Assembly: GCF_001677475.2 (NCBI RefSeq)
Contig: NZ_CP015229.1
Direction: 5' to 3' (one strand)
From: Escherichia coli
GTDB taxonomy: Bacteria > Pseudomonadota > Gammaproteobacteria > Enterobacterales > Enterobacteriaceae
Length of the DNA: 64,000 nucleotides
The notes below the pieces were generated by a model, which saw only the letters and a list, made by a program, of their open reading frames with translations, did not search any database and had not been told where the DNA came from. The translations under genes and the position numbers were made by a program. Positions 26,123 through 45,212 of this stretch are shown here, one piece after another (within the stretch, counting starts at the first letter, position 1; every line of letters starts with the position of its first letter).

Positions 26123-26383
26123 TAAGTTTACGCATGTCTGATAGAATCTGTAGAACCTGTTTATATAAAAAGCCCCTCAGGAGAGGGGCATGCTTGCATG
26201 GTGCCGGGTGCCTCCCGATGAATTCAGTATCAGTACCCGAATCAGCATAATAAAGGAGCAGAACAGAAACATACATCACTCATATGCCCACCACCCGGGG
26301 GGATCCACCATGCAAATTTTTTCTAACAAAAGCTCCGTCAACCAGCAATGCCCAATCAACTTAATTGTGATGGATTTAACATT

Positions 26384-28067: not shown

Positions 28068-28142
<75 letters not shown>

Positions 28143-28145
28143 ATA

Positions 28146-28221
<76 letters not shown>

Positions 28222-28335: not shown

Positions 28336-28885
28336 TTAATTATCTGCCAACGTAACTATTTCACCCGCAGTATGCTCAAAACGTTCAGACTCAAGTTCAA
28401 CGCTTAACGCCATGCCCCCAAGTGCCAGCGCTGCTTTTATTATGGAGCCTGATCCCATGAAAAAGTCGGCAACCAAATCTCCCGGACGCAAACAGAATGC
28501 GCTCTGTTGCCGGGAAATACGCCCGCAGGCTTTCCTTGTTGCACCCGTTCCAGCGCCCGGACAGCTTCGCCCAGATAATGTGGTTCAGCACATTAAAGCG
28601 CTCACGCATCATGATTTCGATATCAGATGCCAGGCGATGACCACAGAACAGGTAAAGACTTCCGGCGGGTTTTAATACCCACCAGAACTGCGCCAGACAC
28701 TGATCCAGCCATTTCAGGTAATCATCGTCGCCCTTCCACTGGTTATCCCAGCCCTCGGGCTTCACTTTAAAGTATGGCGGGTCTGTGACTATCAGATCGA
28801 CAGAGTTTTCCGGTAAGGTCTGGATAAATTCCAGGAAATCAGCGTTGATTAACTCGCAGCTGGATATTTTTACAGTATTAGCCAT
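28336..28885 (-). pseudogene. DNA methyltransferase (DPPY, beta-class) interrupted by a 1-nt frameshift
   Basis: N-part has DLIVTDPPYF; SAM motif DFFMGSGS and C-terminus lie in another frame after a CCGGG run near 28480. Confidence 0.6.
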
Positions 28886-29521: not shown

Positions 29522-30340
29522 TCAATTATGTTTTAAGAATGGATAGGTAAAGAATAACAAGTGACACAGATTCAGACCAAAATGGAAAAGGGTTGCCACC
29601 CACAAGCGCCCACTCCACATCCATGACAATCCATACACAACACCAGATAACGTGGCAAATAATACAAGTAAAGCACCACCTGAATAGTGATAAAAACCAA
29701 ACAACAAAGACGCCACAATTAACGCAACCAATGGAGACGTCACTTCTGATAGCCGTGATTGAATATACCCTCTAAATAATGACTCCTCTGCCAGAGACAC
29801 AAAAAACAAATTAGCCAATATAAACTCTGGCAACCACTCTGGAAAATGAATCTCTGGCTTTAACCCACCAAAAAAAACAGCCAAAAACAGGATAAGAGGA
29901 ACAGAGAGCAACAGAGCCGCCCATTTCCACAAAGACACTTCTGATTTCACTTCTTTTTTAAAAAAAGAAGCTGTACACAGGACTAACAAAAATGGCACCA
30001 GCGCTTTATCAAAATTAAAATACATTGTATAGGGAGTGCTTTGAGGTCCGACAGTGACAGACTTTAGCACTACAGGATTGTGAAACCCTGGCCATAAATG
30101 AAAAGATAATGCTATGGCTGATAAAACTATGCCAGCTTCATATATGGATTTAGCCCAGGCGTTATATTTCCAGTTGAACTTCAAAATAATAAAAAAAACG
30201 ATTGTAGCAACAAAAAACAACACCGGCCAATCAATAATATCATTAAGCACAGCCAGGACAACAGACACCGTCAACAATGAAAAAGCCACTACCTTATGCC
30301 AACTGAGAGTTGACAGTGACAGTGCTAACACAATCCACAT
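29522..30340 (-). CDS. CPBP-family intramembrane metalloprotease (Abi/CAAX protease domain)
   Basis: Multi-TM protein with the family motifs EESLFRGY (EExxxR), FGFYH and HFGLN; encoded in AT-rich DNA. Confidence 0.7.
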   Translation of the reverse strand: MWIVLALSLSTLSWHKVVAFSLLTVSVVLAVLNDIIDWPVLFFVATIVFFIILKFNWKYNAWAKSIYEAGIVLSAIALSFHLWPGFHNPVVLKSVTVGPQSTPYTMYFNFDKALVPFLLVLCTASFFKKEVKSEVSLWKWAALLLSVPLILFLAVFFGGLKPEIHFPEWLPEFILANLFFVSLAEESLFRGYIQSRLSEVTSPLVALIVASLLFGFYHYSGGALLVLFATLSGVVYGLSWMWSGRLWVATLFHFGLNLCHLLFFTYPFLKHN

Positions 30341-30494
30341 AAACACTCCTTTTATTTAATGATGAAGATTGATTATCAATATTTTCAATTCACCTGGCAA
30401 CATTTTGTTTACCTTCCATAAAATTCATGACCATCAAAAAAATAAACATATTAATTATAAACACAGAAAACATAACCCTCGTCACTATATATCC

Positions 30495-30869
30495 CTACCG
30501 CATATCCATATCTAACCGGACATTCAGAGCCATAAGCATTCCTTCAATAATACCTTCAGCTTTATAAAGTCTTTTACCAATAAGCCCATCAGAACATCTA
30601 TGCTTACGTGCAAGAGCCATAAATGTCATTCCACCTACGTAATAATCGACCAACAAATCGTGCAAATACTGATTATTCTTGTTTAATCGTGCCATACAGC
30701 CACAAATTATCATGGCGTCATCATCAGAACACTGAGGACGTGATTTCACTTTAGTTGGGATTAATCCTTTAAAACCAGCAGCTATCGAGGACCATGTTAC
30801 ATCTTCATGATTATTTGCTGCCCATGCTCCCCACCGCTCCATAACCAGCTGAATATCACGCAACATCAT
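30495..30869 (-). CDS. Q: Late antiterminator Q (QuuD-like)
   Basis: 124 aa, [34 protein letters not shown]...[16 protein letters not shown] matches the small Q family. Confidence 0.85.
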
Positions 30870-33148: not shown

Positions 33149-33304
33149 TTACTCCTCAGATTCGTAAGCTGTGAAGACAGCGACCTCCGTCTGGCCGGTT
33201 CGGATTCGCACCTCGCAGAGGTCTTTCCTCGTTACCAGTGCCGTCACTATGACGGTTAAACAGATGACGATCAGGGCGATTAACATCGCCTTTTGCTGCT
33301 TCAT
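33149..33304 (-). CDS. hokD: Hok/Gef-family membrane toxin (HokD/RelF-like)
   Basis: MKQQKAMLIALIVICLTVIVTALVTRKDLCEVRIRTGQTEVAVFTAYESEE, near-identical to E. coli HokD; longer overlapping in-frame ORF is mok-like. Confidence 0.9.
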   Translation of the reverse strand: MKQQKAMLIALIVICLTVIVTALVTRKDLCEVRIRTGQTEVAVFTAYESEE

Positions 33305-33594
33305 AGCCTGCTTCTCCTTGCCTTTCGGCACGTAAGAGGCTAACCTACATGTGCAAAGCATGAAATTGGCCTCAGATTAATGTTAAGCGTCTTGCCGGAC
33401 GCGTAATGTTAACTGGGGCTTTTCTCTATCTGCCGTTGGTGTTCATGCCCGAGGCAGATAGCCTCAAGCACCCGCTGCAATTCTACTTAACTCTCCTTTT
33501 CCCGCAAACCGTTTTTATCCCCAGCGGCAAATCGAATACACCACCAGCGCCACCGCAAGTGCAATTCCTACCGTTGTGAATGCTTCAGGCCAGG

Positions 33595-34509: not shown

Positions 34510-34983
34510 CTATTTCATAAAAATAATCCAGTGAGTTTTATCGTTTTTTCCTGTTCGTTGACCGATAACAGGTTTTCTGTCGGTCAGTGCCAATATCTGG
34601 CGAACAGGTATTTGCGTTTCATTCCATTTGAAAATCAGAACGCCGTATGGCTGCAACACACGAAAGGCTTCTTTAAATCCCTGCCGCAAATCATCACGCC
34701 AGGTATCTTTATTTAGCCGTCCATATTTCTTTCCCATCCAGGCGTTATCACCAACACGCTCAAGATGCGGAGGGTCGAATACAACCATCGAAAAAGATGC
34801 GTCTGCAAATGGTAGTGCACGAAAATCTGCTATCAGGTCAGGGCTAATTATCAGGCGTCGTCCATCACATAATGTGTGCTCTTCTTTTCTGATATCGCTA
34901 AATATCGCCCGGTCGTCATTCTTATCGAACCAGAACATACGACTACCACAGGACATATCAAGAATGGTTGCCGATTCACTCAC
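34510..34983 (-). CDS. Putative SAM-dependent (DNA) methyltransferase
   Basis: 157 aa; motif I-like ILDMSCGSRMFW and motif IV-like MVVFDPPH. Confidence 0.5.
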   Translation of the reverse strand: MSESATILDMSCGSRMFWFDKNDDRAIFSDIRKEEHTLCDGRRLIISPDLIADFRALPFADASFSMVVFDPPHLERVGDNAWMGKKYGRLNKDTWRDDLRQGFKEAFRVLQPYGVLIFKWNETQIPVRQILALTDRKPVIGQRTGKNDKTHWIIFMK

Positions 34984-40746: not shown

Positions 40747-40799
40747 ATTCTGGTGACATTTGGCGGTATCAGTTTTACTCCGTGACTGCTCTGCCGCCC
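40747..40799 (+). ncRNA. dicF: DicF small RNA
   Basis: TTCTGGTGACATTTGGCGGTATCAGTTTTACTCCGTGACTGCTCTGCCGCCC followed by TTTTT, matches DicF sRNA upstream of dicB. Confidence 0.8.
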
Positions 40800-43977: not shown

Positions 43978-44187
43978 ATGGCTATGAGCAGCTTATTTTT
44001 AACCGAAGATGAATTGCTAATATTAACGGGCTGCAAATATGCAAGCCACCAGCGAAAATGGTTAATGGAAAACGGGCTTCCGTTCTATACCAATCGTAGT
44101 GGCAAACCGATTGTCAGCCGGGATCTATTTACCTGCAATAAAACTTTACCACCACGCGAGGTAGAGCCGAATTTTGGTGCAATCTGA
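43978..44187 (+). CDS. xis: Excisionase-like protein
   Basis: 69-aa ORF immediately upstream of and overlapping integrase start. Confidence 0.6.
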   Translation: MAMSSLFLTEDELLILTGCKYASHQRKWLMENGLPFYTNRSGKPIVSRDLFTCNKTLPPREVEPNFGAI

Positions 44188-45212
44188 TGGGAAGACGAAG
44201 GAAAAATCCTGAACACGAAAAATTACCTCCAAATGTATACCCAAATAAATATAGTTATGTATGGAAACCAACATCCAGAGAATCTGTCACACTAACCGCC
44301 ATCAAGGATGGTTTAGCTGCTTTATGGAAAAAGTATGAGGAAACTGTAAATAATCGCGATCGCGCAATGACATTCGGTCGCTTGTGGGAAAAATTCCTCG
44401 CCAGCGCCTATTACAGTGACCTCAGTCCAAGAACACAAAAAGATTATCTGCAACATCAAAAAAAGTTGCTTGCCGTATTCGGTAAGGTGCCGGCAGATTC
44501 CATAAAACCAGAACACATCCGTCGATACATGGACAAGAGAGGGGAACAGAGTAAAACGCAAGCCAACCATGAAAAAAGCAGTATGTCCCGCGTTTACAAT
44601 TGGGGGTATGAGCGAGGGTACGTGAAGGGTAACCCATGTGCAGGTGTAAGTAAATTCAAGGCCAAAAACCGCGAACGATATGTAACCGACAAAGAATACC
44701 AGGCAGTATTAAGTGTTGCACCTCTTCCTGTTTTTATCGCAATGGAAATTGCCTATCTGTGTGCAGCGAGGGTTTCCGATGTGTTATCACTGAAATGGGA
44801 GCAGATTGGAAACGACGGGATCTTTATCCAGCAAGGGAAAACAGGGAAAAAACAGATAAAAGCATGGAGTCCACGATTACAGGCGGCGATCGAAAAAGCA
44901 AAACAGTTACCAACATCTGCCTATGTAATCAGCAATCAATATGGCAACCGATATATGTACAAAGGTTTTAACGAAATGTGGGTAGAAGCAAGAAATCACG
45001 CAGGCAAAATTTCAGGTATTTTAACCGACTTCACCTTTCATGATCTGAAGGCGAAAGGAATTTCAGACTATGAAGGAAGCAGCCGGGATAAGCAACTTTT
45101 CTCTGGTCACAAAACCGAAGGGCAAGTGCTAATCTATGACAGAAAGGTTAAAGTTTCACCAACACTTGATGTCCCGTTACCTGATAATATTCCAAGAAAA
45201 TATTCCAAGTAA
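44187..45212 (+). CDS. int: Tyrosine integrase
   Basis: 341 aa; C-terminal catalytic region with R...HDLKAKG...GHKTEGQVLIY; 3' end 43 nt from serU. Confidence 0.9.
   Translation: MGRRRKNPEHEKLPPNVYPNKYSYVWKPTSRESVTLTAIKDGLAALWKKYEETVNNRDRAMTFGRLWEKFLASAYYSDLSPRTQKDYLQHQKKLLAVFGKVPADSIKPEHIRRYMDKRGEQSKTQANHEKSSMSRVYNWGYERGYVKGNPCAGVSKFKAKNRERYVTDKEYQAVLSVAPLPVFIAMEIAYLCAARVSDVLSLKWEQIGNDGIFIQQGKTGKKQIKAWSPRLQAAIEKAKQLPTSAYVISNQYGNRYMYKGFNEMWVEARNHAGKISGILTDFTFHDLKAKGISDYEGSSRDKQLFSGHKTEGQVLIYDRKVKVSPTLDVPLPDNIPRKYSK

Follow-up and report, generated by a model that had tools for sequence, protein, structure and literature searches.

M.EcoGII and M.EcoGI, encoded by prophages of Escherichia coli O104:H4 C227-11, are non-specific DNA methyltransferases that methylate adenine whatever the sequence context (Murray et al. 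2018, PMC5778455). Both belong to the beta class: DPPY lies in the N-terminal part, FxGxG in the C-terminal part and a target-recognition domain between them. In the lysogen both are silent, their constitutive expression is harmful, and the same authors consider overcoming host restriction during infection to be their likely use for the phage. The enzyme of phage 1720a-02 was named as a very similar relative (PMC5778455).

We describe here a locus that, in our judgement, is very probably a pseudogene of the M.EcoGI/M.EcoGII family with an internal deletion. It lies in E. coli contig NZ_CP015229.1, in a stretch of 64,000 nucleotides which was analysed as a whole and is called the window below. 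The window copy shares with M.EcoGII and M.EcoGI a prophage location and the beta-class order of motifs. Residues 1-133, encoded by its 5' remnant, are 94% identical to M.EcoGII, DPPY included, and the C-terminal 47 residues (about 300-347) are ~67% identical, DFFMGSGS included, the reference being a machine-read sequence (supplementary file 5 of PMC11551740) that contains small reading errors. However, M.EcoGII is described as a protein of 349 aa with a central target-recognition region, whereas the window copy is without codons 134-300 and out of frame, and therefore cannot count as a functional member of the family.

The 5' remnant is also 96% identical at the amino acid level to WP_012138278.1 of E. 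coli E24377A (residues 1-133) and 95% identical to the methyltransferase of phage 1720a-02. These two proteins (348 aa, and 352 aa for AGR48369.1 of 1720a-02), together with L24 of phiP27 (NP_543076.1, 352 aa) and BCI49001.1 of the Stx2a phage Stx2_14040, found at the equivalent phage position, are intact orthologues. Their genes are uninterrupted and, in DNA, 88-96% identical to the first 433 nt of the query. Several other strains carry intact copies as well. At a greater distance, an intact homologue matches the solved beta-class enzymes M.RsrI (1eg2/1nw5), M.MboIIA (1g60), CcrM (6pbd) and DpnA (5hfj) at both ends (E = 1e-15 to 1e-25). These enzymes share the N6_N4_Mtase fold family but are distant and sequence-specific, and serve only for family placement.

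The two remnants and the segment missing between them

Two open reading frames occupy the locus (Table 1). The catalytic motif IV (DPPY, residues 35-38) lies in the N-terminal part of ORF1, inside the 5' remnant. ORF2, which carries the SAM-binding motif, is shifted to the +1 frame with respect to ORF1 and overlaps it by 188 nt, and the frame change adjoins a CCGGG run (minus strand, 28485-28481). On the PF01555 (N6_N4_Mtase) profile, ORF1 reaches 57.8 bits over positions 1-105 and ORF2 34.6 bits over positions 180-218 of 221, both above the gathering cut-off of 26.7 bits; as judged from these scores, the resemblance of both ORFs to N6_N4_Mtase is not due to chance. Profile positions 106-179 are missing from the locus. 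The original prediction of DPPY and DFFMGSGS in separate frames is thus borne out on the minus strand, with both frames recognised by Pfam.

Table 1. Features of the locus and of the surrounding prophage (window coordinates; a slash within a sequence marks the junction)
Feature	Coordinates	Strand	Description
ORF1	28885..28397	-	162 aa; VTDPPYF at residues 33-39; N-terminus MANTVKISSCELINADFLEF
ORF2	28491..28336	-	51 aa from a TTG start; reads (L/M)RPGDLVADFFMGSGSIIKAALALGG...; contains DFFMGSGS
5' remnant of methyltransferase gene	28488..28885	-	nt 1-398 (codons 1-133) of the ~1050-bp ancestral gene, from DNA alignment
Deletion junction	28487..28488	.	Minus-strand reading ...CATTCTGTTTGC/GTCCGGGAGA...; 503 bp gone
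Out-of-frame ORF1 tail	28397..28487	-	29 nonsense codons (SGRFGCRLFHGIRLHNKSSAGTWGHGVKR) and TGA stop; wrong-frame reading of the 3' remnant
3' remnant	28336..28487	-	nt 902 to stop (codons 301-350); SAM-binding motif I DFFMGSGS; +1 frame relative to the 5' remnant
WP_236922851.1	28336..28458	(-)	40-aa "hypothetical protein"; RefSeq call inside the 3' remnant
Antiterminator Q family gene	30495..30869	-	ORF; RefSeq product name in the near-identical module of 09-00049 and GB089
CPBP-family intramembrane protease	29522-30346	-	274 aa; phrog_13291; directly downstream of Q
tRNA-Thr(tgt)	28146-28221	-	ARAGORN and Rfam; phage-borne; directly downstream of the remnant
tRNA-Gly(tcc)	28068-28142	-	ARAGORN and Rfam; phage-borne
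Methyltransferase-like gene	34510-34983	-	Intact ORF of 157 aa
Integrase	44187..45212		341 aa; open reading frame
STnc100 sRNA	26167-26342		Rfam; adjoining iraM
sok antitoxin RNA	33299-33473		Rfam; adjoining a hok-family gene
DicF	40748-40799		Rfam; upstream of dicB

Intact homologues are proteins of 348-361 aa with an end-to-end PF01555 match, and the intact gene under the megablast matches is annotated "DNA-methyltransferase", with a length of 1047-1086 bp. Compared with this intact gene, the locus is without exactly 503 bp, corresponding to gene nt 399-901 (codons 134-300). The two breakpoints, 398/399 and 901/902, agree in the DNA alignments with both references, E24377A and 1720a-02. In the intact gene the left breakpoint reads CATTCTGTTTGC/AGAACA and the right one CAGCAGTC/GTCCGGG, and at the locus the junction (window 28488/28487) reads TTTGC/GTCCGGG. 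The microhomology between the breakpoints amounts to a single common C, which makes this an illegitimate and not a repeat-mediated deletion.

Because 503 = 3x167+2, the 3' remnant, which aligns with residues 301-346 of the intact homologues, is read in the +1 frame, and in the protein alignments the tail of ORF1 is without counterpart in these homologues. The TTG start codon of ORF2 straddles the junction and was therefore created by the deletion itself. On the evidence of these alignments, the loss of 503 bp fully explains the apparent single-base frameshift. Comparison with intact homologues had been put forward with the original prediction as a check, and its outcome is that they align to both remnants with the 503-bp gap between. 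The prediction was right that a prophage gene for a beta-class amino-methyltransferase has been inactivated, but wrong about the cause and about the one-base repair.

The lost codons span the whole of the central region, where target recognition resides, as well as a conserved segment ahead of motif I (HPCEKP...IISASS), and the deletion splits the catalytic motif from the SAM-binding motif. With residues 134-300 of the intact homologues absent, the continuous domain of the PF01555 class is interrupted. Motif I (FxGxG), which in this class stands C-terminal to motif IV on one polypeptide, is found here in the other frame (DFFMGSGS), and ORFs of 162 and 51 aa remain in place of the ~350-aa ORF of the M.EcoGI/M.EcoGII family.

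When 5,426 complete E. coli genomes were searched with the locus by megablast, the 5' part was matched in 1,874 of them, and nearly all of these matches end at query position 433/434, that is, at window 28488/28487; counted as records, the match to the 5' part ends at the junction position in 1876. A copy covering at least 80% of the gene is present in 1,870 of the 1,880 genomes that match it, and full length is therefore the norm.

Origin and distribution of the deletion allele

The 3' end of the locus represents a rare allele, matched by megablast of the 3' part in only 7 complete E. coli genomes. One of them, 08-00022 (NZ_CP013662.1, 2773-3153), carries the same 3' allele with another truncation, which leaves 126 codons, other sequence having replaced the N-terminal two thirds. 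There, ordinary gene sequence extends the 3' allele 228 bp upstream, past the breakpoint of the window copy, so that this allele must once have had a middle. An intact gene ending in the 3' allele (...GEIVTLADN) was not found in complete E. coli genomes (megablast), phage genomes (tblastn) or 5.8 billion protein clusters. These searches returned truncated copies only, the nearest intact genes being 82-86% identical in the 3' part.

Alternatively, two different copies of the gene, such as those of co-resident prophages, might have recombined illegitimately to form the junction, with nt 398 of one joined to nt 902 of the other. Many genomes do hold 2-5 copies of the family, and the 5' part, so close in protein to the E24377A type, is followed by 3' DNA of only ~57-63% identity beyond 60 nt past the junction. 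We nevertheless regard such an exchange as unlikely. The first 30 nt past the junction are 90% identical to E24377A, and the divergence from the common allele starts ~60 nt downstream of the junction and not at the junction itself. Moreover, in 08-00022 an E24377A-like middle precedes the same 3' allele. Taken together, the position of the divergence and the middle retained in 08-00022 favour a deletion within one gene over a join of two unrelated genes, and the comparison indicates that the 3' divergence is an older mosaic boundary, unrelated to the deletion. A single deletion and a recombination between two copies lead to the same pseudogene.

The deletion allele itself was found in several genomes. 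Six complete E. coli genomes give megablast matches that run across the junction. The 66 bp around it are reproduced without a mismatch in four complete assemblies, GB089, RM9088, OkiPb01695 and N96, which come from the USA, Japan and China (RM9088 from a crow in California, OkiPb01695 from cattle in Japan, N96 from a pig in Tibet), while 09-00049 and OkiPb01715 show 100% identity over 276 bp spanning the junction. Over the 550 bp of the locus, GB089 and RM9088 are identical, N96 has two substitutions and OkiPb01695 has the exact junction. The prophages around these copies differ in their structural genes and, in GB089, also in the integration site. Among public contigs, 50 hold the exact 162-aa ORF1 including the 29-codon nonsense tail, and 261 hold the downstream 40-aa ORF.

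In RefSeq the locus bears a pseudogene label, "DNA-methyltransferase, incomplete; missing C-terminus", and the 40-aa WP_236922851.1 comes after it. Its pseudogene status is thus already known, and the locus is no different from the deletion-allele copies annotated in GB089 (CO57_RS08865), 09-00049 (GJ12_RS14270) and RM9088 (FRV13_RS27740).

Coding capacity of the remnants

We propose that the ancestral gene encoded an intact enzyme of ~350 aa, with DPPY in the N-terminal part, target recognition in the centre and the SAM-binding FxGxG in the C-terminal part, and that one illegitimate 503-bp deletion, with 1 nt of microhomology, took out codons 134-300 and put the rest out of frame. Translation that begins at the ancestral start codon would then yield 133 genuine residues followed by 29 nonsense residues, and the SAM-binding end would remain untranslated or at most give a peptide of 40-51 aa. 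We infer that ORF1, ORF2 and their hypothetical fusion would be devoid of methyltransferase activity, and the prophage would therefore no longer make the methyltransferase of this family.

The remnants have also diverged at conserved positions. Nine intact homologues were aligned, and three residues that never vary among them are substituted in ORF1 (C17F, R69W and P108L). In the 3' remnant, otherwise conserved positions show the changes STV/STI to SII, RR to GM, and G to S before VELE. The three substitutions in ORF1, seen against this small sample of nine homologues, fit relaxed constraint and suggest decay.

Two readings would leave the remnants with a role. Beta-class methyltransferases act as dimers, and the dimer is thought to be their sole active form (PMC7544214). 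The 133 genuine residues of ORF1 could conceivably have been kept as a poison of full-length M.EcoGII-type enzymes made by co-resident or superinfecting lambdoid phages, which would leave the DNA of those phages open to restriction by the host. The persistence of the allele, on a shared late module in at least 6 complete genomes and on 50 public contigs, is compatible with this reading, which we hold to be highly improbable. Scarcely more credible, and if anything less so, is a programmed +1 ribosomal frameshift joining the two frames, or a split enzyme assembled from the two pieces. The ORF1/ORF2 overlap makes a shift geometrically possible, and dimerisation is a property of the class. However, no slippery heptamer or other frameshift signal was found in this 188-nt overlap, the only starts offered by ORF2 are the TTG made by the junction and an internal ATG, and any fused or assembled product would be without residues 134-300, that is, 167 residues. 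Furthermore, the full-length relatives have no need of a frameshift, and the substitutions at invariant positions suggest decay.

The weakest alternative, namely that a base inserted in the CCGGG run, or a sequencing error there, splits an otherwise complete enzyme of ~185 aa, retains almost no probability and is refuted by the alignment: removal of one G does mechanically fuse the frames into a 182-aa ORF with both DPPY and FxGxG, but every intact homologue has 348-361 aa, 503 bp are absent at that very point, and the fused protein would be without PF01555 positions 106-179 and residues 134-300. The exact 182-aa fused sequence was not found among ~15 billion public proteins. Since the identical junction recurs in multiple independent complete genomes and the exact 162-aa ORF on 50 contigs, it is not a sequencing error, as had also been suggested.

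The prophage and its late-regulatory module

The window contains a lambdoid prophage integrated beside tRNA-Ser(cga), with an open integrase gene (Table 1). From its anticodon and its mtfA and tRNA-Asn neighbours, we take this tRNA gene to be serU, a name absent from the records.

The remnant has Q on its upstream side and the tRNAs and lysis cassette of the lambdoid prophage on its downstream side, which is where the M.EcoGI/M.EcoGII family, N6-adenine methyltransferases of lambdoid and Stx-type phages, is encoded. Besides Q, the gene of the CPBP-family protease and a small conserved ORF lie upstream of it. The order Q, small ORF (WP_000917767 type), methyltransferase and tRNA recurs in E24377A, 1720a-02 and Stx2_14040, and its small ORF, methyltransferase and tRNA part was observed in phiP27. 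By position, the remnant is that of a late gene. Where the window has the protease, the E24377A prophage has a Ser/Thr kinase and a PP2C phosphatase, and this slot looks like one for interchangeable cargo where the late operon begins.

The intact orthologues differ from the window copy, by mosaicism, in their 3' ends and downstream tRNA sets: the slot of the tRNA-Thr/tRNA-Gly pair holds tRNA-Ile/Arg or tRNA-Met/Arg in the compared Stx phages and related prophages. The Thr/Gly pair also follows the intact gene in E24377A. Further downstream, the near-identical 09-00049 module has its annotated holin at ~25.4-25.6 kb. Between the tRNAs and the holin, the cargo consists of a hypothetical 180-aa protein, a TerB-family protein, a DUF3927 protein and IraM, and no toxin gene is annotated in this interval. 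Rfam and promoter/terminator scans around the locus gave nothing bearing on the deletion. Elsewhere in the prophage, Rfam recognised the sok, STnc100 and DicF RNAs (Table 1).

A second methyltransferase-like gene, also predicted originally, is present in the prophage as an intact ORF. It matches phrog_954 ("DNA methyltransferase", E = 4e-86) over profile positions 50-201 of 229 and, weakly, the Pfam family Methyltransf_11. In this protein LDMSCGS precedes DPPH, a motif order unlike that of the deleted gene, and its equivalent in related strains is named class I SAM-dependent methyltransferase in RefSeq.

From Q to the holin (~24.4-32.6 kb), the late-regulatory module shows 98.6-99.4% identity to the prophages of GB089, adjoining potC, and of 09-00049, at the same tRNA-Ser site as in the window, whereas the structural (head/tail) genes (1-23 kb) are 80-95% identical to the same two prophages. 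In the sampled structural region (14-24 kb), no match above 95-98% was found among the complete E. coli genomes in the collection. On these identities, the boundary between the late module and the structural genes appears as a clear mosaic boundary. Since the near-identical module occurs at different chromosomal sites and with divergent structural genes, the dead gene must travel with a module that is shuffled between prophages. The deletion allele is thus inherited, carried on the late-regulatory module. In the closely related 09-00049 prophage, four genes bear a flag as frameshifted or partial, namely those of the integrase, an S49 peptidase, a DUF1627 protein and gpJ. As the integrase is open in the window and flagged as defective in 09-00049, these relatives stand at different stages of decay.

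We therefore regard the locus as an ordinary case of decay in a prophage gene, from a phage methyltransferase family that is well characterised. The main value of the analysis is a correct annotation, that of an internally deleted M.EcoGII-family pseudogene and not of a frameshifted small methyltransferase. A one-base "repair" is unwarranted, and no methylation motif is to be expected from this locus in SMRT or nanopore data. More generally, the locus offers a small and clean case of a dead gene carried on a late-regulatory module exchanged among mosaic lambdoid prophages: the prophages persist, and the module still spreads, without a functional methyltransferase gene.
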